Position numbers and translations under genes: made by a program | Part shown: piece after piece, positions 18,581 to 55,819 of the stretch | Position numbering within the stretch: the first letter of the stretch is position 1 | Layout of the letters: each line of letters opens with the position of its first letter | DNA from: an uncultured cyanobacterium | Lineage (GTDB): Bacteria; Cyanobacteriota; Cyanobacteriia; Pseudanabaenales; Pseudanabaenaceae | DNA: 64,000 bases | Assembly: GCA_963703315.1 (NCBI GenBank) | Contig: OY969811.1 | Span: 1,920,001 to 1,984,000, forward strand | Direction of reading: 5' to 3' | Notes under the pieces: generated by a model | What the model saw: only the letters and a program-made list of their open reading frames with translations | What the model was told of the DNA's origin: nothing | Databases searched by the model: none

Positions 18581-19273
18581 TTATGCTTGGGCTTGCAATT
18601 GTTCAATTTCCAGAATCACGCGGTTTTGGCTTGACGTAAGATGATCACGGATTGCCGCTAGAGCTTGCTCGACATTGCGTTGGGCGATCGCTGCATATAT
18701 TTGTCGATGCTCAGAGCGAATTTCTAAAACTTGGAGATTGCGTTGAATCGTTTGGATGCGTAACAGTGCCATCTTGTCGAACAATTGATCGAGCAGAATT
18801 GCTAACCAAGGATTGCCTGAACATTCAGCGATCGCCCGATGAAACTGATAGTCTATATGAAGTAATTGATAACTGGTGAGTTGATTAGGTTGTTGAGCGA
18901 TCGCTTTTTCGGCTTGTTGGATGATGGCTTCGATTTTTTCTAACTGGTCAGGTGTAGCGTGTTTACAAGCCTCTGATACCGACTCCTGCTCTAACACAGA
19001 TCGACAACGATAGAGATTTCTGGCATCTTCAGTGGAGAAACTGATTACCCGTAAGTTCCCATTTCCATCTGCAACAATAAGTTGTTCTTTCTGTAACTGT
19101 TGCAATGCCTCGCGAATCGGGGTGCGACTAACTTGCAGTTTTTCGGCGATTTGGGTTTCCACTAAACGTGAGTCAGCCGTAAACTCACCCGACAAAATTG
19201 CCGATCGCAATACTTGGTAAGTTTGTTCGCGCAAAGACTGGGGACGCTGAATTGGAGCAGATGAAGAAAACAT
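18581..19273 (-). CDS. GntR family (FCD-type) transcriptional regulator
   Basis: L.E..IAEKLQVSRTPIREALQQL HTH; D..FH..I, EH..I..AI C-terminal FCD motifs. Confidence 0.93.
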   Translation of the reverse strand: MFSSSAPIQRPQSLREQTYQVLRSAILSGEFTADSRLVETQIAEKLQVSRTPIREALQQLQKEQLIVADGNGNLRVISFSTEDARNLYRCRSVLEQESVSEACKHATPDQLEKIEAIIQQAEKAIAQQPNQLTSYQLLHIDYQFHRAIAECSGNPWLAILLDQLFDKMALLRIQTIQRNLQVLEIRSEHRQIYAAIAQRNVEQALAAIRDHLTSSQNRVILEIEQLQAQA

Positions 19274-19304
19274 GGGTTAGAAAACTCCTAATGAAATATT
19301 TTTA

Positions 19305-19317
19305 TGTATACAGTATA
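19305..19317. promoter_or_regulatory. Putative GntR operator (partial TGTATACAGTATA)
   Basis: Between divergent gntR and amidohydrolase; matches motif seen at 5 other promoters. Confidence 0.7.
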
Positions 19318-19370
19318 TTGTATTCATGATCTGTGATACCACAGAAATAATTATAAAAAAAATCCGAGCT

Positions 19371-20630
19371 ATGATCGTAACACTTTCCAGACAATCAACT
19401 CTAAGCCTATCAATAAACGGCGATCGCCTTGATCGCCATCTTGCGGAACTTGCAGAAATAGGTAAGCTAGCTAATGGGGGCGTATGTAGACTGGCTTTTT
19501 CCGATGCCGATGTGCAGGCGCGATCGCTGATCAAAAGTTGGATGCTGGAAGCAGGGATGACCGTGCGCGGTGATGCAGTCGGGAATATCATTGGCACGTA
19601 TGCTGGTACGGAGTCAGGGATGGCGGCATTGGCGACAGGTTCGCACATTGATACAGTGCCTGTGGGAGGTCGCTATGATGGCTGTCTGGGTGTTTTAGCA
19701 GGAATTGAAGTAGCACGAGTATTTCAAGAAAATCAGTTCCGTTTACGCCATCCTTTGGAAGTAATTGTTTTCTCTGACGAAGAAAATAGCGTCATTGGGT
19801 GCAAAGCGATCGCAGGAAATGCCCCCACCGATCCCGAACGCTATCGCCGCAAAGATGGTACATCCATTCAGGATTGTTTAGCCAAAGTTGGTGGTGATTG
19901 GAATGCTGTAGCAACAGCAAAGCGCGATCGCAATGACATTGCTGCTTTTATAGAACTGCACGTCGAGCAAGGTGGGGTATTGGAAGCGCTAGATAAACAA
20001 ATCGGCGTAGTTACGGGCATAGTTGGTCAATATCGCTTTATGGTGCAGATCATCGGTCGTCCCAATCACGCAGGGACAACGCTAATGAATATGCGAAAGG
20101 ATGCTCTTGTGGCGGCTTCTCAACTTGTACTTGCCATCAATCGTTTGGGAATGACAACTAAAGGCGATCAAGTGGCTACAGTGGGACATCTCACCGTTTC
20201 CCCTAATGCCACTAATGTTGTACCTGCCCATGTTGATTTGAGCATTGATCTGCGCGATCTATCAGAAGAAAATTTACGGTTTCTAATTGATCAGATTGAA
20301 CAAGAATGTAAGGCGATCGCTAAAAATACGGGTACAGAAATTACAATTGAGCAGAAGCTTCATGTTTTACCAACTCCAGCTAAATCGGAACTCATGGAGG
20401 CGATCACCAAAGTTTGCGAAGACCTTGAACTTAGTTATGATTATTTACCGAGTCGGGCGGGGCATGATGCCCAAGAGATCGGACGTTTTACGGATATGGG
20501 GATGATTTTTGTACCAAGTCGTGACGGTATTAGCCATTCTCAAGATGAATATACTTCTCCTGAACAATGCGCTCAAGGGGCAAATGTTCTATTACATACA
20601 CTTTTGGCGATCGATAATTGCTATCCCTAG
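19371..20630 (+). CDS. M20 Zn-dependent amidohydrolase (allantoate amidohydrolase / N-carbamoylase family)
   Basis: GSHIDTVP.GGRYDG.LGV, DEE, ELHVEQG, NHAGTT, SRAGHDA, GISH. Confidence 0.9.
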   Translation: MIVTLSRQSTLSLSINGDRLDRHLAELAEIGKLANGGVCRLAFSDADVQARSLIKSWMLEAGMTVRGDAVGNIIGTYAGTESGMAALATGSHIDTVPVGGRYDGCLGVLAGIEVARVFQENQFRLRHPLEVIVFSDEENSVIGCKAIAGNAPTDPERYRRKDGTSIQDCLAKVGGDWNAVATAKRDRNDIAAFIELHVEQGGVLEALDKQIGVVTGIVGQYRFMVQIIGRPNHAGTTLMNMRKDALVAASQLVLAINRLGMTTKGDQVATVGHLTVSPNATNVVPAHVDLSIDLRDLSEENLRFLIDQIEQECKAIAKNTGTEITIEQKLHVLPTPAKSELMEAITKVCEDLELSYDYLPSRAGHDAQEIGRFTDMGMIFVPSRDGISHSQDEYTSPEQCAQGANVLLHTLLAIDNCYP

Positions 20631-20716
20631 TTGTCAATCCTCCCAGTGAATAATTTTGGGTGCGCGGCTCCGCCGCGCACCCAAAATTATTCACTATCAA
20701 ACTTAGGTAAATCTTA

Positions 20717-22072
20717 ATGGGTACAGTTCTCGTCAAAAATATTCATACTTTGGTGACAATGGATCGCGATCGCCGCGAGCTTCATAATGCAGCAATTTTT
20801 GTGCAGGATCAGGCGATCGCACAGGTCGGACTGACCGAAGATTTACCTAAAGATGCGGATCAAGTTCTCGATTTGCAAGGAAGACATATTGTCATGCCGG
20901 GGTTAGTCAATACTCACCACCATTTCTACCAAACCCTTACCAAAGTAGTTCCCGATGCTCAGAATTGCGATCTATTCAACTGGCTAAAAACACTCTATCC
21001 AATTTGGTCAAAACTAACTGCTGAAGGTGTCTATGTGAGCGCTCAGATGGCTGCCGCCGAACTAATGCTCTCTGGCTGTACCACTGCGAGTGATCATCTC
21101 TATATCTATCCCAATGACTGTACCTTAGATGATGAAATTGCGGCGATGCAAGCGATCGGCATCCGCTTTCATGCCAGTCGCGGCAGTATGAGTGTCGGAG
21201 AGAGTTTAGGTGGATTGCCCCCTGATAGTTTAGTAGAAAAGGAAGCAGATATTCTCAAAGACTCGCAACGATTGATTGAACAGTATCATGATTCCTCTCG
21301 TTATGCGATGTTGCGAATGACCTTAGCTCCCTGTTCACCTTTCTCCGTTTCCCCTGACCTCATGCGCGAGTCGGCAACGATGGCGCGATCCTATACCAGT
21401 GTGAGACTGCATACTCATCTTGCGGAAAACCAATCCGATATCGACTACAGTTTGCAGAAGTTTGGAATGAGTCCTGAAGACTATGCGGAATCAGTCGGTT
21501 GGCTTGGTGATGATGTTTGGCACGCCCATTGTGTGAAGTTAAGTGATCAAGCGATCGCCAAGTTTGGACGCACTGGCACTGGAGTAGCACATTGTCCTTG
21601 CAGTAATATGCGTCTGGCGAGTGGCATTGCCCCCATTCGTAAAATGCTTAATCATGGTGTGCCTGTGGGCTTGGGGGTGGATGGTTCCGCTTCCAATGAC
21701 ATTGGCAACTTGATGCAAGAAGCTAGAACTGCTTTTCTCTTAGCAAGAGTTGGTAGTTGCGATGCCCAGTCAATGAGTGCTAGAGATGTTTTAGAAATTG
21801 CCACCTTAGGCGGCGCGAGGGTATTGGGAAGAGATGACATCGGCGCGATCGCCCCCAATATGGCGGCAGATTTTATTGCGATTAATGTTGATCGTCCAGA
21901 GTTCGCAGGCGCACATCGCGACTTAGTATCGGCTTTGATCTTCTGTCCTGTCGGCAATGTGGATTACAGTTTTATCAATGGGCGAATGGTAGTGGAACGT
22001 GGACAATTAACTACCGTCGATCTACCGATTCTAATTGAACGGACAAATAAATTGTCACTAGCCATGTTGTAG
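20717..22072 (+). CDS. 8-oxoguanine deaminase family amidohydrolase (AtzB-like)
   Basis: PGLVNTHHHFYQTLT, GCTT.SDHLY, RFHASRGSMS.G, APCSPFSV, LHTHLAE, CSNMRLASG, GVDGSASND. Confidence 0.88.
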   Translation: MGTVLVKNIHTLVTMDRDRRELHNAAIFVQDQAIAQVGLTEDLPKDADQVLDLQGRHIVMPGLVNTHHHFYQTLTKVVPDAQNCDLFNWLKTLYPIWSKLTAEGVYVSAQMAAAELMLSGCTTASDHLYIYPNDCTLDDEIAAMQAIGIRFHASRGSMSVGESLGGLPPDSLVEKEADILKDSQRLIEQYHDSSRYAMLRMTLAPCSPFSVSPDLMRESATMARSYTSVRLHTHLAENQSDIDYSLQKFGMSPEDYAESVGWLGDDVWHAHCVKLSDQAIAKFGRTGTGVAHCPCSNMRLASGIAPIRKMLNHGVPVGLGVDGSASNDIGNLMQEARTAFLLARVGSCDAQSMSARDVLEIATLGGARVLGRDDIGAIAPNMAADFIAINVDRPEFAGAHRDLVSALIFCPVGNVDYSFINGRMVVERGQLTTVDLPILIERTNKLSLAML

Positions 22073-22123
22073 AGTTGGGCGATCGCCAAAGAATGAAACG
22101 CTCTTTCCTCCTTTGATCTGTAT

Positions 22124-22137
22124 GTATTGTTGTATAC
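22124..22137. promoter_or_regulatory. Putative NtcA box
   Basis: tGTA-TTGTTGTA-TACa upstream of ABC operon. Confidence 0.6.
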
Positions 22138-22177
22138 AGAAACTTTCTTGCTACTAACCTTAAATACAGGTTAGTTC

Positions 22178-22192
22178 TGTATACAGTATACA
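22178..22192. promoter_or_regulatory. Putative GntR operator TGTATACAGTATACA
   Basis: Full 15-bp palindrome 22 bp before SBP start. Confidence 0.8.
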
Positions 22193-22214
22193 TATTTAGC
22201 TTTGCAGAGAGATA

Positions 22215-23351
22215 ATGCTTCATACTTTCAAGAAACAGTTACACAGAATTCTCTTTATTGCAGTTTCCACAACAGTACTTGCTGCTTGCAACAGTGCGCC
22301 ACCAAGCACAACCTCTGGCGATAAGCCTTCAACAACTGCAACAACGACCAAATCAGTCAATCCTGATCAGAAAGCCAAACAAGATATTCGTGTGCAGCTT
22401 CCCTTTCTGAAACAAAGTCTTGATGCACCTCTAATTTGGGCGATCGAAAAAGGCTATTTTGCAGAGGAAGGACTAAACGTCAGTTACGAGCGTGGTTTTG
22501 GGAACGCTGATACCATTAGTAAGTTGGGTACTGGCAAGTACGACATGGCATTTAGCGATGTCTACAATGCGATGGAGTTTAATGACAAAAATCCTAATGA
22601 TAAGATTCTTGCTGTAGCCTTTTATCAAAACAAAGCTCCTTTCTCAATTGTTACTTTCAAAGCAAATGGAATTAAAAGCCCTGCCGAACTATCTGGCAAA
22701 AAGCTTGGTGCGCCCGCAGGTGATGGACCTCGCAAGCTATTTCCTCTTTTGGCGAAAGAAGTGAAAATCTCTCCCGATTCAGTCACTTGGGACACAATGG
22801 AACCGAAGCTGCGGGAAACCTTTTTGCTACAGGGTAAAGTTGATGCAGTCAGTGGTTTTTATACTTCAGTTGTTCCATCATTGATCAAAGGTGGAAAGAC
22901 GATGGAGGATATTCAAATCTTTTTCTATGACGAATATGGCTTAGATTTTTATGGCAATGGGATTTTAGTCAAACAAGATTTCATGACCAAAAATCCTGAA
23001 GCCATCAAAGCTTTCCTCAAAGCCTATTTTCGAGCCATGCAGGAAGTTATCAAAGATCCTAGTGCCGCCCTTGATCTAGTTGTATCCACCGATCAAAGTA
23101 AGTTGATGGATCGAGATGCAGAGAAGCTACGTTTAAAACTCGCCCTCGAACGGATGTATGTGACTCCAGAATTAGAAGCATCTGGTTTGGGTGGTGCGGA
23201 CATGAAACGGCTCGATAAGAGTATCGCTCAAACCGTTGAGGGTTTTAAATTGAAGCCTACTACCTCTGCGGATTTGTTTACCGATAAGTTCTTGCCGCCT
23301 AAAGAACAACGGATGGTTCCTCCTGCTAGCGATCGCAAACCATTGCTCTAA
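22215..23351 (+). CDS. ABC transporter substrate-binding lipoprotein (NMT1/THI5/SsuA-like)
   Basis: Lipobox LAAC; A.EKGYFAEEGL.V; GIKSPAEL.GKKLG. Confidence 0.9.
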   Translation: MLHTFKKQLHRILFIAVSTTVLAACNSAPPSTTSGDKPSTTATTTKSVNPDQKAKQDIRVQLPFLKQSLDAPLIWAIEKGYFAEEGLNVSYERGFGNADTISKLGTGKYDMAFSDVYNAMEFNDKNPNDKILAVAFYQNKAPFSIVTFKANGIKSPAELSGKKLGAPAGDGPRKLFPLLAKEVKISPDSVTWDTMEPKLRETFLLQGKVDAVSGFYTSVVPSLIKGGKTMEDIQIFFYDEYGLDFYGNGILVKQDFMTKNPEAIKAFLKAYFRAMQEVIKDPSAALDLVVSTDQSKLMDRDAEKLRLKLALERMYVTPELEASGLGGADMKRLDKSIAQTVEGFKLKPTTSADLFTDKFLPPKEQRMVPPASDRKPLL

Positions 23352-23363
23352 TAGCAAAACAGA

Positions 23364-23424
23364 TACCAAAACAGAAAATGGCATAGCCATTTTCTGTTTT
23401 TAAAACCCTTACTGGGTTTGGTTT
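23364..23424 (-). repeat. Dispersed intergenic repeat, copy 2
   Basis: Inverted homolog of 7117-7176. Confidence 0.65.
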
Positions 23425-23457
23425 CATTACTCCACTCAATAAAATGGCATAACTAAA

Positions 23458-24282
23458 ATGGTTCAGCCTCTAACTTCCTCTTCTACTGAAACTGCTACTC
23501 ATTCTATGCCCTTGCTAGAATTTGATCGGATTGGTTTGGAATATCCATTTGGCGAATCGATGCGTCGGATTATTCAGGAAATCTCGCTCGACATCCAAGC
23601 AGGTGAATTTGTCTCTTTTGTCGGTCCTAGTGGATGCGGCAAAACCTCGATTTTACGGATGGTTTCAGGCTTAAGTCCAACTAAAATTGGTGAGTTACGT
23701 TGTCATGGTCAACCAGTCACAAAACCACTCAAAAATGTGGGTATTGCTTTCCAGAATCCCGTATTACTACCTTGGCGACGGACTATTGATAATGTATTAC
23801 TGCCCTTAGAAGTAGTCCATCCCTATAAGCGCGATTTCAAAGTTAATCATGCTCATTATGTGGAAATGGCACAAAAATTATTGCAGGCAGTGGGTTTAAA
23901 GGATTTCCAACAGCAGTTCCCTTGGCAGTTGTCGGGTGGTATGCGGCAGAGAGCTTCTCTTTGTCGTTCCTTGATTCACCAACCAGAAATTTTACTATTA
24001 GATGAACCCTTTGGGGCGCTAGATGCCTTTACCCGTGAGGAAATGTGGGTAATGCTGCAAAAGTTATGGATGGAAGCAAAGTGTGTGGGAATTTTAATTA
24101 CCCATGATTTGAGAGAAGCTGTATTTTTGTCAGATACCGTTTATGTGATGAGTCCACGCCCCAGTGAGATTGCTTTCAAGCTGAAAATTGATCTGCCGCG
24201 TCCAAGAACCTTAGAAATGTGTCTCAGTGATGAGTTTGCTCATCTTGCTGCCGAACTACGTCGTCATATTCACAAAAACTAA
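23458..24282 (+). CDS. ABC transporter ATP-binding protein (NitT/TauT family)
   Basis: GPSGCGKT, LSGGMRQR, LLLDEPFGALD, H-loop ITHD. Confidence 0.95.
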   Translation: MVQPLTSSSTETATHSMPLLEFDRIGLEYPFGESMRRIIQEISLDIQAGEFVSFVGPSGCGKTSILRMVSGLSPTKIGELRCHGQPVTKPLKNVGIAFQNPVLLPWRRTIDNVLLPLEVVHPYKRDFKVNHAHYVEMAQKLLQAVGLKDFQQQFPWQLSGGMRQRASLCRSLIHQPEILLLDEPFGALDAFTREEMWVMLQKLWMEAKCVGILITHDLREAVFLSDTVYVMSPRPSEIAFKLKIDLPRPRTLEMCLSDEFAHLAAELRRHIHKN

Positions 24283-24401
24283 ACTATCTAAAAGCTGTAG
24301 TGAAGTACGGGATTGTTTCCCCGCCTTCGGCGGGGAAACAATCCTATGTACCTCGCTTGCTTGAAAAGCGCTATATATGAAAATGATCCTCAGGAGAAAA
24401 T

Positions 24402-25211
24402 ATGCAGGGAACTATTGAGAATGCAAGGCAATCGCCTAAGAAGTTTGATTTTGATGCTTTTCTGAATACGAAATCGGCGACGGTCATCTTGCCAGCGATC
24501 GCCACAGTTGTATTATTTGTGATCTGGGAAGTTGCAGTATGGGCATTGAAGATTCAGCCTTTTAATTTACCTGCTCCTTCCAAAATTTTAGAAGCAACCA
24601 TCAAATTTGCACCTCAGCTTACCGAAAACTCTTTGAGAACAATCTGGACAACCTTTGCGGGTTTTGCGATCGCTAGCATCGTCGGTGTAGTTTTAGGCTT
24701 TCTAATTGGTTACTCTCGATTCATTTATCTAACTTTCTATCCATTACTAGTTGCCTTTAATACAATTCCGAAGTCAGCACTAGTGCCATTGTTAGCGGTT
24801 TGGTTTGGAGCCAATGCTATTCCTGCGATCGTCACCGCATTTTTGCTAGCATTTTTCCCGATCGCGGTTAATGTTGCCCTTGGTTTAGAAACCATTGAGC
24901 CTGAGATGAAAGATGTTTTACACGCTTTGGGAGCATCTAATTTTGAGATATTCCAGAAAGTTGGCTGGCCGCATACCTTACCCTATGTATTTGCCTCTCT
25001 CAAAATTGCGGTTTCCTTTTCCTTTATCGGAGCCGTAATTGCTGAGTCGATCGCTTCTAATGCAGGTTTAGGCTATCTGATCGTACAGGCAGCATCGGAC
25101 TTTAATGTACCTCTTGCCTTTGCAGCATTGATTGCCCTTGCGATCTTAGGGGTGATGCTATACGCCTTATTTGTCGCTATAGAAAAGAAAGTTATCTACT
25201 GGGCAAGATAA
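24402..25211 (+). CDS. ABC transporter permease (NitT/TauT family)
   Basis: LPAPS, IPK.AL.PL...WFG, EAA-like LGAS..EIF.KV..P..LP, GLGYLI. Confidence 0.93.
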   Translation: MQGTIENARQSPKKFDFDAFLNTKSATVILPAIATVVLFVIWEVAVWALKIQPFNLPAPSKILEATIKFAPQLTENSLRTIWTTFAGFAIASIVGVVLGFLIGYSRFIYLTFYPLLVAFNTIPKSALVPLLAVWFGANAIPAIVTAFLLAFFPIAVNVALGLETIEPEMKDVLHALGASNFEIFQKVGWPHTLPYVFASLKIAVSFSFIGAVIAESIASNAGLGYLIVQAASDFNVPLAFAALIALAILGVMLYALFVAIEKKVIYWAR

Positions 25212-25224
25212 TCCTCTAACAAGC

Positions 25225-25260
25225 AATAAAAAAGGCTCGCCTAGGCGAGCCTTTTTTATT
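25225..25260. terminator. Bidirectional terminator-like hairpin
   Basis: AATAAAAAAGGCTCGCCTAGGCGAGCCTTTTTTATT. Confidence 0.8.
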
Positions 25261-25265
25261 GTTTG

Positions 25266-25442
25266 TTATCTAGGTTTTGGCAACCATCCCAAATGGCGAT
25301 AGTTTGGGTGGAGATAATCTTTGGGTTCACGGCTGTCAATTACTTCTTCAAATTTTGGCAGATCATCTACCTCTATAAATATTAGGCGATCGTCATAATT
25401 TCGATCTTTGGGTTGCTTGATATTTTTACTAAGAGTTTGCAT
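25266..25442 (-). CDS. Possible 58-aa small protein
   Basis: Manual: MQTLSKNIKQPKDRNYDDRLIFIEVDDLPKFEEVIDSREPKDYLHPNYRHLGWLPKPR*; stop abuts the bidirectional hairpin. Confidence 0.45.
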   Translation of the reverse strand: MQTLSKNIKQPKDRNYDDRLIFIEVDDLPKFEEVIDSREPKDYLHPNYRHLGWLPKPR

Positions 25443-25695
25443 AGCTTTGTTTTAACTCATAAATTTTAATTTCTATTTGTATTATAAACTACATTTATTT
25501 CAAAACAAGCTGAGAGTTGTTATTCAATGACATTAATGAATAATTAATGAATATATGGTTAGCTATAGCTAAATAAATTAAGACATCAAGCCCATAAGAG
25601 AGGGGCGGCGCTTTGCGCCGCCCCTCTCTTATGGTATAAAACAGCAAAAGCCTTGCATTGCAAGGCTTTTGCTAAAAATGAACTTTTGCTTGTTT

Positions 25696-27600
25696 CTAGA
25701 AACTAAACTGAGTGCGGAGATTACCGACAAATACAGTTGGGTTAGTCGAGAAACTATTAGGATTGAAAATTGCGTAGAAGGCAGGGACGATCGCAATATT
25801 TTTACTGATTGGATAGTAGTAAGACATCTCTACGTCATACTGGGTTGCACCATTCCCACCGCCAGAAGCAAGGAAATTTCGACCACTGCTATAGCTGTGA
25901 GGTACAACAAAGGAAAGTACGCCCAATGCACCTTCCTTAAATAGATCTGGAAAAGCTAAACCAAATTGATAGGCATTTACATTTACACTACCACCAGCGA
26001 TCGCGGGATTAATTGGCGAAATGTTAGTACTACCGTAGGAATAGCGACCAAATACACCAAAACCTTTTGTAATCAACCAATCAAAGTTAAGGATAAACGT
26101 ATCTGCGGTCGCATTATTGATACCGCCACCTTGACCATCATCCGCAATCCCGTATGGCAGAGGTTCAGCAGTAGCGCCAGTAATCCGATTAGCAAGAGGT
26201 GGGATAAGAACGCCAGTGGTTTTAATATTGGAATGAGTGTACAAGAACCGAAAGTTGGCATCACGACTTGGCGAATATACTAACTCTGCCGACAGTGTAT
26301 TTGTACCTCCAAACAAACCTTGTTGAGGATTGCTAGAAGTATTGAAGTTAGGATTAGTCGCAGGGAGAAATTCTGTGTTTTCACCAAGATAACCAGCAGT
26401 AAATTTAAACTGAGGATTAATCATCCAAGTGACAATTGCACCTGAACCGCGATCGACAGCATTCGATAAAGTACTGCCATTGGAGTTAAAGCTAGTTGCA
26501 CCCGTCAAGAAATTAGTGAAGCGGTTCCCATCAAAATAGCGATAGAAGTTTAAACGAGGACCGATCGCCAGATTGACATTATCAGAAACAGGGAAGCTAT
26601 AAAATAACTCTCGAATATTAAAGGTATTAGCAGTTGGTACACCTGTCTGATCTAGAAACGGTGTCCCCCAAGAGTTAAAGAAACCGTTGGATGCAAAATT
26701 ATTGGCAGGAGAGTTACCATTACCTGTTACCAGTTGAGTTACTAAAGCATCTTTGCCAGTAAATGAGGTGGTTAGGGTGAGAAATAGATAGTAACCAAAG
26801 GTGAGATTAGGACGGATTGCTGTGGTCGTTAAAGGCTGTCCAGTGATACTGCGTGCGCCAGTCTCTCTAATCACATCTCCCGAAGCGGTGGCTCCAGTGA
26901 GATTAAAGAAAGCAAGTCCACTCAGTTTTGTCGTTGTAGAGAACTGCTGTGCTTCGAGCTTAGCTGTTTTTGCATCAAGGGCATCCACACGACCGCGTAA
27001 AGTTGCCAATTCAGCCGCAAATTCTTCTTGCAACTTCTGTAAAGTAGCAAGGTCTTCCTTTGATACTTTGTCCGCTAGCCCTGCGGAAATAATTTCATTA
27101 ATTTTATCCAAACAGGCATTCAGTCCCGCCGCAAATTCATAGCGAGCTAGGGCTTTGCTGCCACGAAAAGTCCGATCAGGATAGCCTGCGATACATCCAT
27201 ATCTTTCTACTAGAGATTGCAGAGCCGTGAATGCCCAATCGGTTGGACGCACATCAGACAACTGGGATACCGAGGTTACTGAGGCAACATCAGTCGTCTC
27301 AGTGAGCTTGTCTACTTCCAGATTGCTAGTAGCTGATTCTACGGTTAGGTTTGGTTGAAGAGTGGTAGCAGCTTCTTGGCGGTCAATTAAATTACTAATT
27401 GATGGCGTAGCTGTCGGTGCAGAATTTGATAAATTATTCGGTAAATTAACTGTTGAGAGATTAGTGGATAAATCTTTTGATAAAGTTTCTGACGTTTGAG
27501 GTGCAGCTTTTACAGGTGCATTGCCCAAAGTAGATAACACAGCAGACATCGTGACAAACATCGCTAGACAAGAGCGCGAACTATTGAAAGCCTTTGACAT
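25696..27600 (-). CDS. Cyanobacterial SLH-domain outer-membrane porin (OprB/SomA-like)
   Basis: VTSVSQLSDVRPTDWAFTALQSLVERYGCIAGYPD SLH motif; QFSTTTKL; C-terminal LRTQFSF. Confidence 0.93.
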   Translation of the reverse strand: MSKAFNSSRSCLAMFVTMSAVLSTLGNAPVKAAPQTSETLSKDLSTNLSTVNLPNNLSNSAPTATPSISNLIDRQEAATTLQPNLTVESATSNLEVDKLTETTDVASVTSVSQLSDVRPTDWAFTALQSLVERYGCIAGYPDRTFRGSKALARYEFAAGLNACLDKINEIISAGLADKVSKEDLATLQKLQEEFAAELATLRGRVDALDAKTAKLEAQQFSTTTKLSGLAFFNLTGATASGDVIRETGARSITGQPLTTTAIRPNLTFGYYLFLTLTTSFTGKDALVTQLVTGNGNSPANNFASNGFFNSWGTPFLDQTGVPTANTFNIRELFYSFPVSDNVNLAIGPRLNFYRYFDGNRFTNFLTGATSFNSNGSTLSNAVDRGSGAIVTWMINPQFKFTAGYLGENTEFLPATNPNFNTSSNPQQGLFGGTNTLSAELVYSPSRDANFRFLYTHSNIKTTGVLIPPLANRITGATAEPLPYGIADDGQGGGINNATADTFILNFDWLITKGFGVFGRYSYGSTNISPINPAIAGGSVNVNAYQFGLAFPDLFKEGALGVLSFVVPHSYSSGRNFLASGGGNGATQYDVEMSYYYPISKNIAIVPAFYAIFNPNSFSTNPTVFVGNLRTQFSF

Positions 27601-27645
27601 AACTCCTCAAACCAATTACATAAGCGACGAAAATACGAATTCAAA

Positions 27646-27693
27646 AATCGCAGTAACTTGAATACTGTATACAGTATTCAAGTTACTGCGATT
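27646..27693. promoter_or_regulatory. Perfect 48-bp palindrome centred on TACTGTATACAGTA (putative GntR operator) upstream of porin
   Basis: AATCGCAGTAACTTGAATACTGTA|TACAGTATTCAAGTTACTGCGATT. Confidence 0.75.
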
Positions 27694-27719
27694 AAACTGG
27701 AGAATCGCGATCGCTTTCT

Positions 27720-27733
27720 GTATTGATGATTAC
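27720..27733. promoter_or_regulatory. Putative NtcA box
   Basis: tGTA-TTGATGAT-TACa upstream of porin. Confidence 0.65.
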
Positions 27734-27805
27734 AGTCAATCCAAAACCAAAGGAACCAATTTTTAGTGGCGCTGCGAAGCCGCGCCACTAAAAACTTGCC
27801 GAAAC

Positions 27806-28165
27806 CTAACTACCGCGATAGGTGCTGTAAGCCCAAGGTGATACCAGTAAGGGGACATGGTAGTTAGCATTGACATCAGAAATACCAAAGCGAATGGGAA
27901 CGCGACTTAGGAAAGGGGGCTGGGTTTGAGATATTTCTAGACTTGCAAAATAGTCACTCACATTAAACCAAATTTCATAAATACCTGACTGCATCTCCGC
28001 ACCACTTAGTAATGGCTGATCGGTTCTGCCATCTTGATTGGTATACAGAGTTTTGAGTAAGGTCTTTTTTTCGTGATTGTCAGTTAACCACAACTCAATC
28101 TGCATATTTCTCGCAGGCGATCCATTTACTGTATCGAGAACATGGGTTGAGAGTTTTCCAGTCAT
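27806..28165 (-). CDS. uraH: 5-hydroxyisourate hydrolase (transthyretin-like)
   Basis: LSTHVLDT..G.PA, TN.DGR, YHVPLL.SPW.YSTYRGS; ATG at 28165. Confidence 0.96.
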   Translation of the reverse strand: MTGKLSTHVLDTVNGSPARNMQIELWLTDNHEKKTLLKTLYTNQDGRTDQPLLSGAEMQSGIYEIWFNVSDYFASLEISQTQPPFLSRVPIRFGISDVNANYHVPLLVSPWAYSTYRGS

Positions 28166-28185
28166 AGTATATTGTATTTGATAAT

Positions 28186-28200
28186 TGCATACTGTATACA
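28186..28200. promoter_or_regulatory. Putative GntR operator TGCATACTGTATACA
   Basis: One mismatch to consensus; between divergent uraH and GGCT-like gene. Confidence 0.75.
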
Positions 28201-28233
28201 ATAACTTAGCCTATAACTTCAACATTGCTACTT

Positions 28234-28626
28234 ATGACCACATCTAACGGGACAAGACGAGTATTTATCTGCGGTTCAGCATTGCGAGGACAGCCTGATC
28301 ATGGCAATTTGCAAGATGCCAAATTTATCCGTACTGCTAATACCCAATCACGTTATCGACTTCATGCGGCTGGCGACGGTTGGCATCCTGCGATTTATGA
28401 AGTAGAAACAGGGGGGATTTCCATCCCTGGGGAAGTCTATGAGATGCAAGCCGATGAATTTGACTACCTCGCTAGTAATGAGCCTCCTCATATGTATCCT
28501 ACAGATGTTTATTTGGAAGATGGAGAAGTATTGACAGCTTTCTTCTATCCTCAAGAGTTAATCGAAAAGTTTAATTGGAAAGACATCTCTCATCTTGGTG
28601 GTTGGGCTGCTTATAAAAGTGCATAG
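28234..28626 (+). CDS. Gamma-glutamylcyclotransferase-fold protein resembling allophanate hydrolase C-terminal domain
   Basis: VFICGSALRGQPDH.NL..A.F.....T...YRL, I.GEVY, EPP, L.DG, DIS..GGW.AY. Confidence 0.75.
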   Translation: MTTSNGTRRVFICGSALRGQPDHGNLQDAKFIRTANTQSRYRLHAAGDGWHPAIYEVETGGISIPGEVYEMQADEFDYLASNEPPHMYPTDVYLEDGEVLTAFFYPQELIEKFNWKDISHLGGWAAYKSA

Positions 28627-28664
28627 ACTAAAAGAAAATGGCTCGCTTTGCGAGCCATTTTCTT

Positions 28665-29735
28665 TTAGTCTATGCGAGCGATCGCCGCAACTGGACCACC
28701 GCCAGAGGGTCCTTGATGTTCAGCACCTCCAGATACATAGACCATCGGATCTTGGACGATAGAAGCCACTACTGCTCCCACCACAGCCCTTGCCATGCGT
28801 GTATGGTTGATATCAGAGTCATCCATCATCGTATGTCTTCTCCCCAAAAGCTCTCCCGTTGGGTCAGCCTCGGCTTTAGCAAATATATTGATGACCCGAT
28901 CGCTTGTTTGACCTGTGGAGGCGATCGCCTTAGTTACAGCTTGAGCATCCAGAGCGTGTTGCATCACACTATGACCAATCACAAAGTTACTAGTGGATGT
29001 CGGGGCATTCCCTAAGACCAAAATCTCGCAATTGCGTAACTCCACCCCTGCGGAGGTGGAAGCAACCGTGGAGTACAAAGCATAATTTTGGCAAATATCT
29101 GCCTCTGTAAGATCTTCTAGTCGAACTTCACCCAAGGCGACCGCTACACCTAGCGCTGAGGCTCCACGCGAGTAACCCATTGACTGATAGCTGCTTACCG
29201 ATTTACTAACTGATTTCTCTTTTGGAGATTCATCTAGCAAGCGATCGCGACTGGTGACAAGGGGACATTTGATCTGGACAAAATGCACATCGTCTTTAGC
29301 GATTCCTGCGGTAGCGATCGCCTGATTAACTGCCGCAGCAACTTCTTTAACCATTGTTAACGATCCAATTTCCGCAGGGGTAAAATCACGGGTATGAATC
29401 ACTCCCAAGGTTAAAGCCATACGGGTTGGGGTGTCTGTCGATGAAGGTTGACTTGTAAAAATTGTCAAATGCGGGCTTAAGGCTCCCTCAGTACCGCCCG
29501 ACATGACATAGACAATCGCTGCCGCTTGCTCCTGTCCGACAAAATTAGCGAGGTAGTTTTTTAAGGTTTGGACAGCAAAGCCGCGTGTGAAGTCATTCAC
29601 ACAGCCATTTCCTTCTGTCTTGCCCATAATCGCCACAATGTGCTGGGGATTAATTTTGCCTGAAGCGATCGCTGCTTCTAGAGCCGTGAGATCATCAGGG
29701 CTATTTTGAGGAAGCTTGTATACATCAACTTTCAT
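28665..29735 (-). CDS. atzD: Ring-opening amidohydrolase, cyanuric acid hydrolase (AtzD/TrzD)-type
   Basis: GKTEGNGCVNDFTR, VMSGGTEG, HFVQIKCPL, SMGYSRGASALG, STSAG, YVSGGAEHQGP.GGGP. Confidence 0.88.
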   Translation of the reverse strand: MKVDVYKLPQNSPDDLTALEAAIASGKINPQHIVAIMGKTEGNGCVNDFTRGFAVQTLKNYLANFVGQEQAAAIVYVMSGGTEGALSPHLTIFTSQPSSTDTPTRMALTLGVIHTRDFTPAEIGSLTMVKEVAAAVNQAIATAGIAKDDVHFVQIKCPLVTSRDRLLDESPKEKSVSKSVSSYQSMGYSRGASALGVAVALGEVRLEDLTEADICQNYALYSTVASTSAGVELRNCEILVLGNAPTSTSNFVIGHSVMQHALDAQAVTKAIASTGQTSDRVINIFAKAEADPTGELLGRRHTMMDDSDINHTRMARAVVGAVVASIVQDPMVYVSGGAEHQGPSGGGPVAAIARID

Positions 29736-29771
29736 TTTTTTATTGGAGATAGGGTTTTGTGTTGCCGTTCC

Positions 29772-30674
29772 TTATGCTGGTTTATGGTGCTTGTGCCAAT
29801 GATGGGCAATGTCAATACGGCGACAAATCCAGACGCGATCGCGGCTCTGCACATAGTCTAAAAATCTCGCCAAAGCCGCCGCCCGTCCTGCTCTGCCCAC
29901 TAAGCGACAATGTAAACCGATGCTCATCATTTTGGGAGAGGTGTCGCCTTCGTCGTAGAGAACATCAAAGGCATCGCGCAAATAGGCAAAAAACTGATCG
30001 CCCGAATTAAAGCCTTGGGGCGTGGCAAAACGCATATCATTATTGTCGAGGGTATAGGGAATAACTAGGTGCGGCTTGCCATATTCATAGTTCCAATAGG
30101 GAAGGTCATCGGCATAGCTGTCGGAATCATAGAGAAATCCACCTTCTTCCACAACTAAACGGCGTGTATGCTCACTAGTCCGCCCCGTATACCAGCCGAG
30201 CGGACGTTCCCCTGTTACTTGTGTATGAATCGCGATCGCCTTTTGCAAATGTTCTCGCTCTTGTTCAGGAGAAAAATATTTGTAATCAATCCAACGATAG
30301 CCATGACTAGCAATTTCCCAATCTGCTTCCAGCATGGCGGAAACAGCTTCAGGGTTACGAGCGAGCGCCATCGCAATACCATAAATAGTTACAGGAATAT
30401 GGCGATCGCAAAACATCCGATATAAGCGCCAAAATCCTGCACGACTACCATATTCATAACAGGATTCCATATTCATGTGACGCAATCCATTAAAGGGAAC
30501 TGCGCCCACAATTTCTGATAGAAAAGTTTCAGAGGTACTGTCTCCATGCAGAATACAAGTTTCGCCACCTTCCTCGTAATTAATCACAAACTGGACAGCC
30601 ACACGAGCATTATCTTTCCATTTTGCATCAGGAGTAAATCTCCCGTAGCCAATCATGTCTCTTGGATATGTCAT
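29772..30674 (-). CDS. puuE: Allantoinase PuuE (polysaccharide deacetylase fold)
   Basis: YPRDMIGYG, QFVINYEEGGE, YEYGSRAGFWRL, PYTLD.NDMRF, MMSIGLHCRL.GR. Confidence 0.95.
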   Translation of the reverse strand: MTYPRDMIGYGRFTPDAKWKDNARVAVQFVINYEEGGETCILHGDSTSETFLSEIVGAVPFNGLRHMNMESCYEYGSRAGFWRLYRMFCDRHIPVTIYGIAMALARNPEAVSAMLEADWEIASHGYRWIDYKYFSPEQEREHLQKAIAIHTQVTGERPLGWYTGRTSEHTRRLVVEEGGFLYDSDSYADDLPYWNYEYGKPHLVIPYTLDNNDMRFATPQGFNSGDQFFAYLRDAFDVLYDEGDTSPKMMSIGLHCRLVGRAGRAAALARFLDYVQSRDRVWICRRIDIAHHWHKHHKPA

Positions 30675-30715
30675 GGTTATATATGGGTAATTCCTAATTC
30701 GTAATTCGTAATTGA

Positions 30716-31216
30716 TTAACTACTAATCGCTAAAACCAAACGCCATCTAGCAATTTCGATAATTTCGGCGATCGCCGTTTGCTTCTCTACTTCCAGATTA
30801 TTCTGAAGTCTTTGCTCAAAAGCAGCAAGAATACTATCTTTGGTATGGTTGCGAACAGCGATGATAAAAGGGAATGAGAACTTCTCTTTATAGGCTTGAT
30901 TAAGATTTTGAAAGCGATCGTATTCTGCGGCAGAGAGTTGATCGAGTCCGATGGTGGATTGCTCCTGTACTGAAGCTTCCGCCATTTTGAACTTACTGCC
31001 CAGATCGGGGTGAGCGCAGATGAGCTTTAATTTCTCAGCATCACTCATTCTCAAGACGATCGCCGCCATGACTTGGTGCAGATTTTGGACATCGATAAAA
31101 GGACGCGATCGCCATGCTTCGGCGGCTATTTCGGGTGTGTGTTCAAAGATCGAACCGAGGGCTTCAATAAATTCTGACTGACTCATTTGGTTGAGAGTAT
31201 TGATCGTATAACTCAA
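30716..31216 (-). CDS. uraD: OHCU decarboxylase
   Basis: IFEHTP.IA, AHPDLG, S..EQ...GL, N..Y..KF.FPFIIAVR, EI..IA..RL. Confidence 0.95.
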   Translation of the reverse strand: MSYTINTLNQMSQSEFIEALGSIFEHTPEIAAEAWRSRPFIDVQNLHQVMAAIVLRMSDAEKLKLICAHPDLGSKFKMAEASVQEQSTIGLDQLSAAEYDRFQNLNQAYKEKFSFPFIIAVRNHTKDSILAAFEQRLQNNLEVEKQTAIAEIIEIARWRLVLAISS

Positions 31217-32382
31217 TGCAATGGTCCTCCACTGATAATTTTGGCGATCGCACTGGTGACATCTAAGGGACTTTCCTGCGAGAGTTGGTCATACCACTTT
31301 TGGGTAACTTCAGGATCTTTGCCATGAATAGCTTCCGCCCGATTACGCGCTTTATTCACGATTTCAGTAGTGCGGACTTTGCGTTCCTTTTCGTAACGCA
31401 TCAGGGCATCGGCAACACTTACATTAGTTGATAATAGATAATTAGCGATCACAAAGCTATCTTCGAGAGCTTGACATCCACCCTGTCCGAGATCTGGGCA
31501 AGTCGCATGAGCTGCGTCCCCCAAAAGAGCTACCCGACCCTTGACCATTTTTTCAATAGGTCCTACATCATGGATTTCTACCCTCGCAACATTCTCAGGA
31601 TCGAGACGATCAATTAGTAACTGCACAGGCTTTGCCCAGTCTTGAAAATATTCCTTGAGTTCTATTTGATAGTTAGCGCGATCATTAGTTGTACCTTTGG
31701 GGAGTGGCACATCAAAAAAGAAATAGAAGCGATCGCCAGCAACAGGCATCATCGAGGCGCGTTTATGTTCTCCCACATAGATCGACCACATATCCGCAGG
31801 GGCAAGATCATCACTAATCGGAACCAATCCATTCCAATTTACATAGCCTTGATAGGTTGGTTCAATTGTTTCATTGAGAACATATTTCCGTAACAGCGAA
31901 CGCACTCCATCGGCAGCGATTAGCACATCGCCCGAGGCCGCACTTCCATCTTCAAATTTAGCGGTAACATCGCGATCGCTTTCTATGCAATCAATACATT
32001 TAGTACCAAGAGTTATCTTGCCGCCTAGGGACTCAAATGACGATAAGAGAAGATTTTGTAAATCTCGTCTTGCCACAGGGTAAGGACGTTGACCGACTTC
32101 ATCAATTAAAGGTTGAAGAGGAATTTCATTGAGTAAGTTCCCCGACAAATGGCGGTATTCCATCCGATTCATGATTCCACCGATTGCTGCCATTTTCTCG
32201 CCCAAACCAAGACGATTGAGAACTTTAACGCCATTTGACCAAAGCGAAATCCCTGAACCCGTAGGACGCAAATCCCGTACGCGATCGTAAATTTCCACTT
32301 CGTAGCCAGACTGTCGCAGCGAGATTCCTGCTGTCAGACCACCGATACCTGCACCGATAATTATTGCTTTTAAACCGTACAC
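31213..32382 (-). CDS. hpxO: FAD-dependent urate hydroxylase
   Basis: GAGIGG, ISLWSNGVK.LN.LG, YVNWNGLV, YVGEHKR.S.MPV, GDAAH...PD.GQGGC; GTG at 32382 preferred start. Confidence 0.92.
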   Translation of the reverse strand: MYGLKAIIIGAGIGGLTAGISLRQSGYEVEIYDRVRDLRPTGSGISLWSNGVKVLNRLGLGEKMAAIGGIMNRMEYRHLSGNLLNEIPLQPLIDEVGQRPYPVARRDLQNLLLSSFESLGGKITLGTKCIDCIESDRDVTAKFEDGSAASGDVLIAADGVRSLLRKYVLNETIEPTYQGYVNWNGLVPISDDLAPADMWSIYVGEHKRASMMPVAGDRFYFFFDVPLPKGTTNDRANYQIELKEYFQDWAKPVQLLIDRLDPENVARVEIHDVGPIEKMVKGRVALLGDAAHATCPDLGQGGCQALEDSFVIANYLLSTNVSVADALMRYEKERKVRTTEIVNKARNRAEAIHGKDPEVTQKWYDQLSQESPLDVTSAIAKIISGGPLH

Positions 32383-32402
32383 GATGGCAATCCTACACAA
32401 AA

Positions 32403-32449
32403 TGTATACTGTATACAAAACTATTTTTAACCATTGTATATCAAGCTAC
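32403..32449 (-). promoter_or_regulatory. Putative NtcA-activated promoter with overlapping GntR operator
   Basis: GTA-N8-TAC at 32436-32449, 22-nt spacer, -10 TACAGT (32413-32408) inside TGTATACTGTATACA (32403-32417). Confidence 0.75.
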
Positions 32450-32532
32450 AAAACAGCAGGAGTTACGCAAAGTTGCATGGTCAGGAGATCGCAACTTTTT
32501 TGCCACATTGATCTTGCTATACAACAAATGTA

Positions 32533-32547
32533 TGTATACTGTATACA
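32533..32547. promoter_or_regulatory. Second putative GntR operator TGTATACTGTATACA
   Basis: Perfect consensus 130 bp from the first. Confidence 0.75.
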
Positions 32548-53500: not shown

Positions 53501-53637
53501 GTGGGCTGTTCACATCTACCGCCTTAACCTTACTGGTTTTACCAGCTTTGTATTCCCAGTTTGGGAAGTACCTCATTCCCAAACCAACTTGCCCTCATCC
53601 CCCAGCCCCTTCTCCCAGAACGGGAGAAAGGGAGTAA
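50515..53637 (+). CDS. CusA/CzcA family heavy-metal efflux RND permease (NrsA-like)
   Basis: MPLDVFP.FAPPQVEIQTEA.GLAPEEVE, NTMTLGGLA.AIG..VDDAIVD.EN, RL.AILMTA. Confidence 0.95.
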   Translation: MLSSIIKWAIARRWLVIVGAMILSIWIFRTIVQMPLDVFPPFAPPQVEIQTEAAGLAPEEVESLVTLPIESAINGTAGVSAVRSSSAASISVVRVIFNWGTDIYQARQLVTERLQAARSKLPASVETPQIAPISSPIGTILTYAFTSKNNDLMETRRLVDWQVTNRLLAVPGVAQVIVFGGDVRQYQVLVAPEKLQAFNVSLQDVSDAVAAANVNAAGGYLITPDREKLIRGIGRIEDIEALKQSVIKARNGVPVRISDIADVKIGAAVKRGDASVNTQKAVVAIINKQPQADTPTVTRAVEAAMNELKVGLPTSIQVETTFRQEAYIDASIENVKEALIEGSIIVALVLIPFLMNWRNLAVCLAALPLSLLIGVLALNWLGQGLNTMTLGGLAVAIGSAVDDAIVDAENVYRCLRENKHSDHPRPVLEVVFDGCQEVRDSVFGATIITIVVFSPIFALTGVEGSIFIPMGLGYLAAVLASSFVALTVTPALCAILLPYGHLPEREPWVARFFKKLYLPLIKFAMRRSQIIIGLAAASILLSAIVVPSFGRIFLPEFQEQSLVNTLLLYPGSSLEATNSAGSVLENKLKDNPNFRNIQVRSGRAEGDADAAGVNLAHVDVELSEVGMKDRRASIDLLRQEFGKVIGAAPNVGGFISHRMDEVLSGVRSAIAVKIFGADLAQLRILGQQVNDVMRSVEGVVDLQLEPQIPVEQVQIKFDRMAAARYGLTIGKLSETIETALNGKVVSQVLEQQQTFDLVVWLKPEARQSLNAIGNLMVDTSDGNKIPLAQVATLIDGKGANTINRENVSRLLVVAANAQGRDLRSVVSDIQAKVKAQIQIPTGYYIQYAGQFEAEGRASQNIVLFSAIAFVAITVIMYLSVKSVASTVMIMINLPLALVGGVIAVALTGGVLSIASLVGFVTLFGVATRNGLLLVDNYNTKFASGMPLRDLLIQGSMERLNAILMTAFTSALGLAPLVVAGGAGKELLQPLSIVVLGGLFTSTALTLLVLPALYSQFGKYLIPKPTCPHPPAPSPRTGERE

Positions 53638-54323: not shown

Positions 54324-54338
54324 TGTATACAGTATACA
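54324..54338. promoter_or_regulatory. Putative GntR operator TGTATACAGTATACA
   Basis: Perfect consensus upstream of NCS2 permease; degenerate NtcA-like GTA-N8-AGC at 54292-54305 lies 22 nt before the embedded TACAGT. Confidence 0.8.
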
Positions 54339-54379
54339 ATACATAGAATTTATATTTCAAATAACTCAAGCAAGACATT

Positions 54380-55819
54380 ATGGATGCGGAAAAGGAACTT
54401 ACCCTAGATGATCAATTTGCCGACAAAGTTGAAGATGCTTCAGCAGTCGGTAAGTCTGAACTCATCTATGGTCTAAATGATAAGCCCCCAGTTGTCGAAG
54501 CGATTTTTGTGGCTTTCCAGCACGTTCTCGCTGCTTTTGTTGGCATTATCACGCCGCCAATCATTATCTGTACCACTCTCGGACTAGATGCCGCGAATAC
54601 TAGCTATTTAATTAGTATGTCGCTCTTCGCTTCGGGAATCTGCACTTATATCCAATGTAAAAAGATTGGTCCCGTTGGTTCAGGTTTGCTGAGTTTGCAA
54701 GGAACCAGTTTTGCTTTCCTTGCACCTATTTTAGGTGTAGGAACTGTTGCGATCCAAAAAGGGAGTTCTCCAGAGCAAGCTTTGGCTTTGATTTTTGGAG
54801 TTTGTTTATTTGGCTCTTTTGTAGAAATTATTTTGAGTCAATTTTTACATCTCCTAGATAAAATCATTACTCCAGTTGTTTCTGGAACGGTCGTGATGAT
54901 TATTGGTCTAGGATTGATTAAAACTGGGATGATCAGCTTAGCTGGTGGTGCTGTCGCTCTAGCCCAAAAAGATGGTTCCTTTGGGAGCTTTCAAAATCTG
55001 GCTCTTGGTGGTACTGTCCTTTTGATTGTGCTGACCCTAACCCTTTCTAGGAATCGCTTTTTGAGGATGGGCGCGATCGCGATCGGGTTGGCAGTTGGCT
55101 TTATCATTTCTTTGTTCCTTGGTATTGTAGATTTTAGTTCTCTAAGTCAACTTCCTTTCTTTAGGATTCCAGTACCTCTTCGTTATGGGATCAGCTTTGA
55201 TTTTGGAGCCTTCCTACCATTCATCCTGCTCTATGTTTTAACAGCGATCGAAACCGTTGGTGATTTGACAGCAACTTCGGCAGTATCTGGAGAACCAGTC
55301 AAAGGCGGTGTGTATGTTCGCCGTATTAAGGGGGGTGTTCTTGGAGATGGGATTAACTCATTGATTGCTGCGTTTCTCAACACATTTCCTAACACTACCT
55401 TTAGTCAAAACAATGGTGTTATCCAAATGACAGGTGTAGGTAGTCGTTATGTCGGATTCTTTGTAGCTGGCATTTTTGCGATCTTGGGACTGTTGCCTGT
55501 TATTGGTGGTGTATTTCAAACTATTCCCCAACCTGTTTTGGGTGGTGCAACTCTAGTTATGTTTGGCTCGATCGCTGTGTCTGGTTTAAATATCGTCGTA
55601 TCAGCAGGACTAGATCGCCGTTCGATTATCATCGTTGCAGTATCTCTTGGCTTAGGCTTAGGTGTGGTATTTGTGCCTGAAGTTTTTGCAGATAAACCCG
55701 CAATTTTTAATAATCTGTTTGGTTCTGCGATCTCTACAGGTGGTTTAACCGCTATCCTTTTGAGTTGGCTATTACCTAGGTTCGATGAAGAAGTTGCTGT
55801 TCAAGAAAATCTTTCTTAA
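54380..55819 (+). CDS. NCS2/NAT family xanthine/urate permease
   Basis: QHVLA, GTSFAF, ETVGD..ATS, NAT motif TFSQNNGVIQMTG, VLGGA...MFG. Confidence 0.93.
   Translation: MDAEKELTLDDQFADKVEDASAVGKSELIYGLNDKPPVVEAIFVAFQHVLAAFVGIITPPIIICTTLGLDAANTSYLISMSLFASGICTYIQCKKIGPVGSGLLSLQGTSFAFLAPILGVGTVAIQKGSSPEQALALIFGVCLFGSFVEIILSQFLHLLDKIITPVVSGTVVMIIGLGLIKTGMISLAGGAVALAQKDGSFGSFQNLALGGTVLLIVLTLTLSRNRFLRMGAIAIGLAVGFIISLFLGIVDFSSLSQLPFFRIPVPLRYGISFDFGAFLPFILLYVLTAIETVGDLTATSAVSGEPVKGGVYVRRIKGGVLGDGINSLIAAFLNTFPNTTFSQNNGVIQMTGVGSRYVGFFVAGIFAILGLLPVIGGVFQTIPQPVLGGATLVMFGSIAVSGLNIVVSAGLDRRSIIIVAVSLGLGLGVVFVPEVFADKPAIFNNLFGSAISTGGLTAILLSWLLPRFDEEVAVQENLS

Follow-up and report, generated by a model that had tools for sequence, protein, structure and literature searches.

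In the genome of an uncultured cyanobacterium (GenBank assembly GCA_963703315.1, contig OY969811.1) a gene for a cyanuric acid hydrolase (CAH), atzD, stands directly behind the urate-degradation genes hpxO, uraD and puuE, and the four genes are likely transcribed together behind a box that is probably the operator of a GntR-type regulator encoded in the same island. The window, i.e. the stretch of 64,000 nucleotides analysed here (C1:1920001-1984000), belongs to a one-contig genome of 4.57 Mb with a completeness of 99.67%. Because the identity of its AtzD to Pseudanabaena records reaches 95%, the genome was treated as belonging to that genus. Gene identities were obtained from a scan of open reading frames (ORFs) and from Pfam and NCBIfam family scans with curated cut-offs, and all genes named in an earlier note on this DNA were found at their places. 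The regulatory setting is new, whereas the CAH itself is an ordinary one; neither the enzyme nor the idea of its natural origin is without precedent. The reading we favour, with a confidence slightly above even, is that the organism salvages cyanurate met together with oxidised purines, AtzD having been recruited into a purine regulon in part of the genus.

The genes hpxO (FAD-dependent urate hydroxylase, 31213..32382; NF033623, 603 bits, cut-off 500), uraD (OHCU decarboxylase, 30716..31216; TIGR03164), puuE (allantoinase, 29772..30674; TIGR03212, 538 bits, cut-off 425) and atzD (28665..29735; NF052395) are all on the minus strand with atzD last, and the successive gaps of -4, 41 and 36 bp bear out the close, co-oriented spacing noticed earlier. 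The probable start of hpxO, GTG at 32382, was taken from an annotated orthologue of 389 aa. Folding of the puuE-atzD gap gave no hairpin and the terminator scan found none there, the terminator and sigma-70 scans being overall at chance level. A perfect 26-bp hairpin lies over the stop codons of atzD and of the convergent gene for a stand-alone allophanate-hydrolase C-terminal domain (AH_C). This palindrome (28620..28675) takes in the last codons of both genes and is a probable bidirectional terminator; at the atzD stop its folding energy is -44.2 kcal/mol (z -11.8), and none of 200 shuffles was equally stable. The unfolded gap together with the strong hairpin makes a four-gene transcript ending at atzD likely, and the position of the plus-strand AH_C gene, tail to tail with atzD, places uraH outside it. 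With a GC fraction of about 0.41-0.47, the island does not stand out against 0.42. RNA support was sought in a soil metatranscriptome, which held 0.05 of the words and a contig of about 90% identity spanning puuE-atzD; contigs in that set run to 110 kb, so this one is no proof of a single transcript, and it was not used.

By the criteria of its sequence, the protein is a CAH of the Toblerone fold family with the full AtzD signature. It reached 486 bits with the equivalog NF052395 (cut-off 360) and 482 bits with Pfam PF09663, and the ranking of PDB entries was Moorella CAH (406 bits), TrzD (360), AtzD (340) and barbiturase (252), the ring-opening amidohydrolase RAH (5hy0) scoring 193 bits. The motifs HFVQIKCP and SMGYSRGASALG were found, as were the Ser-Lys dyads K39/S79, K156/S228 and K287/S335, the substrate arginines R51, R190 and R316, the metal-binding Glu (E289) and the SGGAEHQGP loop. 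The cyanuric acid specificity signature Arg195/Thr321/Arg325/Gly345/Gly346 corresponds to R190/T312/R316/G336/G337 in 29 of 29 sequences of the genus. Judged by the reference positions in the available parts of PMC3758960 and PMC6557486, all 15 catalytic and specificity positions are of the CAH type in the window protein and in all 29 genus sequences, and the barbiturase signature (Asn/His/Lys/Val/Ser-Ala) is absent from the former, in agreement with the earlier assignment to the CAH rather than the barbiturase class. Family and signature are shared with the Group II and III CAHs (Moorella thermoacetica 6bum, Pseudomonas ADP AtzD 4bvq, TrzD 5t13), unlike which the window protein is cyanobacterial and closes a urate operon rather than belonging to atzDGEHF or to a biuret cluster; with barbiturase (5hwe) and RAH it shares the fold family, at lower scores.

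The box TGTATACAGTATACA occurs in four exact copies in the genome, all of them inside the window, where base composition predicts 0.02; with at most one mismatch there are seven genome positions (0.9 expected), again all inside the window. Boxes precede the M20 and deaminase genes (two mismatches, 19305..19319, between gntR and the M20 gene), the ABC transporter (exact, 22178..22192, 5' of the binding protein gene), the porin, the divergent uraH and AH_C genes (one mismatch, 28186..28200, between them), hpxO (two exact copies, 32403..32417 and 32533..32547) and a PbuX-type permease gene (54380). A perfect palindrome at 27646..27693 is centred on the operator-like box, contains two overlapping copies of it and is at the same time a terminator-like hairpin after uraH (z -11.2). 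The box was found in 40 of 48 genus genomes, the eight genomes without it all being without puuE, and a reversed-box control gave 0-1 matches per genus genome. Of 28 loci sampled from other cyanobacteria, most have similar boxes (three mismatches or fewer) beside gntR, M20 and puuE genes, and GntR orthologues there adjoin the same genes and the box. The box is probably the operator of the island's GntR/FCD transcription factor (18581..19273, minus strand; Pfam GntR and FCD), a probable regulon repressor whose binding we infer, and a candidate operator that would mark a purine regulon across many cyanobacteria. An NtcA site was considered and rejected: the spacing is GTA-N7-TAC, and not the N8 of the NtcA consensus. 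The NCS2/PbuX-type xanthine-urate permease gene (54380-55819, plus strand), preceded by an exact box at 54324 (54324..55819 in all), lies 22 kb off the island and within about 4 kb of hpxO in two linked relatives, and is a probable outlying member of the same regulon.

Within the genus, atzD is present in 29 of 48 genomes; it is in none of 23 genomes of other genera of the family. Comparison of the neighbourhoods of all 28 other genus loci (some on short contigs) placed atzD directly after puuE in 10 of the 29 genomes, this one included, so that the linkage is not unique to the genome in which it was noticed. The ten linked sequences require one change of state on a quick protein tree of atzD, on which their monophyly has a support of 67. 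An rpoB tree was built for 47 genomes from one gene fragment, leaving out G027, G040, G048 and G051; its inner nodes are weak, and it distributes the linked genomes over at least four separate positions. The island of G062 shows a dS of 0.55-0.83 against 1.20 for rpoB and was probably acquired by transfer, and in NZ_AP017563.1 the whole island is on a plasmid. In our reading the linkage is derived, was then retained and has at times moved as a unit. A recent sweep of atzD into the operon was tried as an explanation of its divergence at fourfold sites, lower than that of puuE in 36 of 45 linked pairs; the same pattern in 43 of 45 unlinked pairs means that there is no evidence for it. No remnants of atzD were found behind puuE in 20 unlinked puuE loci (15 with atzD elsewhere, 5 without it). 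At one locus (L016, G022) an insert of about 5.2 kb between uraD and puuE parts puuE-atzD from the hpxO promoter region.

Looser associations were seen further afield. In a metagenome survey covering the best 80 of 586 confirmed AtzD loci (5 kb or longer in 50 cases; cluster representatives were annotated), AllF/G/H genes lay near atzD in 19 of 80, carbamate kinase in 11, an NCS2 permease in 9 and a BiuH/TrtA-type hydrolase in 8. Among five plasmid records opened out of 128, two had ureide genes near the AtzD-family gene (allB in Skermanella, ureidoglycolate lyase in Polaromonas), and two Rhizobium loci were biuret-type clusters. These neighbourhoods suggest that AtzD is loosely but recurrently tied to ureide metabolism, the exact urate operon having been found, among the sets surveyed, in this genus alone.

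The purine route itself was examined gene by gene. HpxO, UraD, PuuE and UraH (hydroxyisourate hydrolase, 27806..28165, minus strand; TIGR02962; probable start ATG at 28165, after an annotated orthologue of 119 aa) all scored above their family cut-offs. So did the 8-oxoguanine deaminase family protein (20717..22072, plus strand; NF006055, 675 bits, cut-off 532), with best PDB matches to 3hpa (619 bits) and 7ww2; members of this family also deaminate isocytosine and guanine, according to the accessible part of PMC6186785. The M20 Zn amidohydrolase (19326..20630, plus strand) passed the subfamily PRK09290.1-5 (NF006771, 446 bits, cut-off 399) but not the AllC equivalog TIGR03176 (285 bits, cut-off 598), and the structures that it most resembles are those of N-carbamoylases and ureidoglycolate hydrolase; it is likely an allantoate amidohydrolase. 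A xanthine-dehydrogenase Mo subunit, AllE/UGlyAH and an AllA-family lyase (PF04115) were not found in the genome, and allantoicase gave no match in a search whose control also gave none. The genome gave seven Rieske matches, none assigned as an HpxD-type hydroxylase. The path from 8-oxoguanine or urate to ammonia drawn up earlier is incomplete here as far as gene content tells, for want of AllE/UGlyAH, an AllA-family lyase and the Mo subunit. With the Klebsiella hpx cluster and other HpxO-UraH-UraD-PuuE pathways it shares the FAD urate hydroxylase route to allantoate, an M20 amidohydrolase and an NCS2 permease; it differs from the Klebsiella type in the three genes not found and in the addition of 8-oxoguanine deaminase, AtzD and the stand-alone AH_C. 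A guanine deaminase is encoded at G000:C1:2504751-2506082 although no Mo subunit was found, and no route from xanthine to urate is evident. Between the deaminase and uraH lie genes of an NMT1/THI5-type ABC transporter (binding protein, ATPase and permease; 22215..25211, plus strand) and an SLH-OprB cyanobacterial porin (25696..27600, minus strand), both identified by family scans.

The earlier note had passed over the gene for the stand-alone AH_C, a GGCT-like domain (28234..28626, plus strand; PF21986, 102.7 bits). In profile comparison it matched 5c5z as well as allophanate-hydrolase C-domains; at a site occupied by Ala or Pro in the fused domains it has retained a Glu (EPP motif), and it is without the His of their 'GAHL'. 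Close homologues are found in 35 of 401 genomes of a phylum sample. At the loci outside the genus (L241-L268, 1.5 kb on each side) an M20 gene was present in 17 of 28, and M20, puuE, gntR, hpxO, uraH or uraD adjoined in 24 of 28. Within the genus, the 36 island-type copies, assigned by score band, track puuE (37 genomes) and not atzD (29). AH_C recurs more constantly than atzD in the purine clusters of cyanobacteria. AllE was found in none of 40 genomes with an island-type AH_C. A weak PF04115 match in 30 of these 40, though none in this genome, counts against a complete pathway hole. Our hypothesis is that AH_C acts after the M20 step and fills such a hole, which would make it a candidate new enzyme of cyanobacterial purine catabolism and a concrete candidate for the missing step. 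A role as TrtB or as a partner of AtzD was rejected on its distribution, which follows puuE; in plasmid locus L095, the small 'allophanate hydrolase' turned out to be a cupin. A second stand-alone AH_C, of the 5c5z type (an E. coli structure), is encoded at G000:C1:283258-283635 (L007:8259-8636) and follows biuH rather than puuE in the genus; it is a candidate for decarboxylating allophanate or carboxybiuret where a genome lacks AtzF.

Downstream of cyanurate, the window is indeed without a biuret hydrolase, as had been noted, but the route is no longer unexplained: the whole genome encodes biuH (C1:4528595-4529278; NF050097, 411 bits, cut-off 370), trtA and urease. The first two belong to a cluster biuH-ABC ATPase-ChrR cupin-trtA (C1:4528595-4532180), whose TrtA is closest to 6xix. 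There is no AtzE or AtzF in the genome, the sole PF01425 amidase being GatA, and no urea carboxylase over the cut-off. The ChrR cupin, which also occurs in L092 and L095, is a candidate for the carboxybiuret decarboxylase TrtB. Separate from this cluster is a porin-BMP-permease operon (C1:1141430-1146913) with an NtcA-like site by the same consensus. The gene content would allow cyanurate to pass through carboxybiuret, biuret and allophanate and, by decay of the last, to urea and urease; carboxybiuret and allophanate are unstable (PMC6219798, in the part available). In the genus, biuH is present in 43 of 48 genomes, mostly with trtA, and in 29 of 29 genomes with atzD, and the five genomes without it are also without atzD, which suggests that the use of triuret and biuret is widespread. 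On pRL10 of Rhizobium johnstonii (leguminosarum) 3841 the order is biuH-atzD-ABC-trtA-like hydrolase-cupin. AtzD, BiuH, TrtA, the ChrR-type cupin and BMP-type ABC parts are common to both systems (PMC5806882, available portion); no atzF lies beside the pRL10 cluster, and the present genome has AtzF nowhere. In the window genome, however, more than 1.9 Mb separate atzD from biuH, and atzD stands under the purine box. With atzDGEHF of Pseudomonas sp. ADP the AtzD first step is common, whereas AtzE and AtzF are not in this genome.

In the reading that we favour, the GntR/FCD protein would probably repress the island via TGTATACWGTATACA, and the porin, the ABC transporter and the NCS2 permease would bring in oxidised purines. 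From family-level knowledge, 8-oxoguanine would be deaminated to urate, HpxO, UraH, UraD and PuuE would carry urate to allantoate, and the M20 enzyme would probably free ammonia. AtzD, predicted to be co-transcribed behind puuE, would open cyanurate to 1-carboxybiuret, which would decarboxylate to biuret. From this, BiuH, whose gene lies elsewhere together with trtA, would make allophanate and ammonia, and with no AtzF in the gene content allophanate would decay to urea, to be split by urease. Cyanurate would most likely be a non-enzymatic side product of urate or guanine oxidation. If it arrives or forms together with urate, urate would be a usable cue for AtzD synthesis. The coupling to purines would be optional, AtzD being equally maintained where it stands alone. 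The cyanurate-type active site, the probable puuE operon, the box specific to the purine cluster and the linkage in nine other genomes uphold part of the native purine role proposed earlier for AtzD, the facultative linkage limiting the other part.

Several observations weigh against such a purine tie. In 19 of the 29 genomes atzD is unlinked and lies in varied, unrelated contexts, and no box with at most one mismatch was found in the loci of these 19 genes. Conversely, 27 of the 37 genomes with puuE over the cut-off have no atzD behind it (18 carry it elsewhere), and 9 are without any atzD, next to the 10 in which it is linked. The dN/dS of atzD is 0.067 when linked and 0.081 and 0.073 in two unlinked groups; unlinked atzD is under purifying selection equal to that on linked atzD. 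The seven most divergent genus sequences on the atzD tree and those of other cyanobacteria are unlinked, by which linkage looks derived. Six of the 401 phylum genomes match atzD, two of them of this genus, and in none of the other four does it stand beside hpxO, uraD or puuE, so that the survey of cyanobacterial neighbourhoods showed the linkage to recur in the genus and not in the other cyanobacteria sampled. Near atzD in metagenomes, hpxO-uraD-puuE appeared at 1 of 80 loci, a 92%-identical relative. Finally, no purine box was found upstream of biuH-trtA, which puts the downstream step outside the purine regulon.

Alternatively, atzD may be a mobile singleton of a biuret/triuret module, having come to lie behind puuE once and there gained a promoter that works during nitrogen scavenging, and may act on environmental cyanurate from protist excretion, urea/cyanate chemistry or pollution with no special tie to urate, which we consider possible at a likelihood well short of even. 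Apart from the many unrelated sites at which equally conserved atzD genes occur, the pRL10 gene inside a biuH-trtA-cupin cluster and a cyanobacterial atzD fragment adjoining biuH-trtA speak for a mobile gene. A lone weak branch of the atzD tree divides the linked genes from the rest, so that one event may lie behind them, and Paramecium secretes cyanurate (1.78 ug/L, in the available part of PMC12342508). Such hitchhiking is countered by the persistence of the arrangement across several rpoB lineages and through the probable transfer to G062, and by the recurrence of AtzD homologues near allantoin-type genes in unrelated phyla.

A farther-reaching alternative, which we think unlikely, holds that in these oxygen-evolving cells urate turnover regularly yields cyanurate (by a side reaction of HpxO or reactive-oxygen chemistry), that the GntR regulon was built to catch it, and that AH_C is an undescribed enzyme which, in genomes without AllE, deals with an unstable M20 product by carbamate decarboxylation or ureidoglycine cleavage; if true, it would mean a native purine-to-AtzD pathway and a new enzyme activity. 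Still less probable is that linked AtzD mainly opens another ring from urate or 8-oxoguanine oxidation, such as oxonate, allantoxaidin or parabanate, as had also been proposed earlier. The position of atzD in a urate operon would suit this, and parabanate and related rings are known products of urate oxidation (PMC11782772, accessible part). Linked and unlinked proteins are, however, 75-90% identical with the same residues at the 15 checked positions, which match characterised CAHs; their active sites hint neither at a ring substrate besides cyanurate nor at a changed specificity, and biuH accompanies atzD in all 29 genus genomes that have it. Detoxification, in which AtzD would clear cyanurate that inhibits a ring enzyme or transporter of the urate route and not serve for nitrogen, is very improbable, since most puuE genomes run the operon without linked atzD, even though ring analogues cross-inhibit, cyanurate inhibiting barbiturase (PMC3758960), and the downstream biuH is in another regulon.

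The salvage reading fits published chemistry, in which the oxidation of urate leads to cyanuric acid and triuret (PMC7948467, Fig. 1 legend; PMC11782772; available parts). The placement in a urate operon fits a native role in gaining nitrogen from oxidised purines as well. A natural origin of AtzD, put forward earlier for this locus, is no new idea: that cyanurate and its enzymes arose naturally, through purine oxidation, is already published (PMC7948467, PMC6557486 and PMC7615792, as far as their accessible parts go), and an ancient origin of AtzD is likewise in print, to judge from the parts available. The literature searched showed no account of an atzD-hpxO-puuE operon in cyanobacteria; outside its coverage lie the central AtzD-family surveys and 8-oxoguanine deaminase papers, possible places for one. 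The available parts of PMC6015842, PMC6737895, PMC12623156, PMC6186785, PMC12828455, PMC5806882 and PMC13751858 do not describe atzD in a urate operon. Arguments in print for a natural supply of cyanurate, on which AtzD was maintained before the advent of triazine chemicals, come mainly from chemistry. In this one genus atzD is inside the urate operon, outside it or absent, and the linked form exists in cultured strains, which makes the link directly testable; if salvage is right, freshwater cyanobacteria can take nitrogen from cyanurate, biuret and triuret.

Further observations concern individual atzD loci. In the unlinked genome G019, deaminase, M20 and gntR genes lie 6 kb from atzD. Twelve unlinked atzD genes have a common short upstream leader despite their differing surroundings, and in four unlinked genomes (L032-L035) a 140-aa gene, which by its look we take to be of the SnoaL/NTF2 type, directly follows atzD. 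At L037:2770-5381 (G081) two AtzD-family genes stand near-tandem with a 145-aa gene between them; the first is 38% identical, has lost the catalytic Lys/Ser of several domains and scores below the AtzD cut-off, and the pair is flanked by genes for a GntR protein, an NMT1 binding protein and a deaminase-like protein. The fragment adjoining biuH-trtA is at L040:9782-10144 (G099), and in another cyanobacterium (L039, G317) atzD is in two pieces. Elsewhere in the window, positions 38473-44979 hold an ORF of 2168 aa with strong strand skew, and positions 50515-54233 hold a gene of 1040 aa for a CusA/CzcA-like RND efflux protein and one for a small His-rich lipoprotein, as judged by the appearance of the translations.

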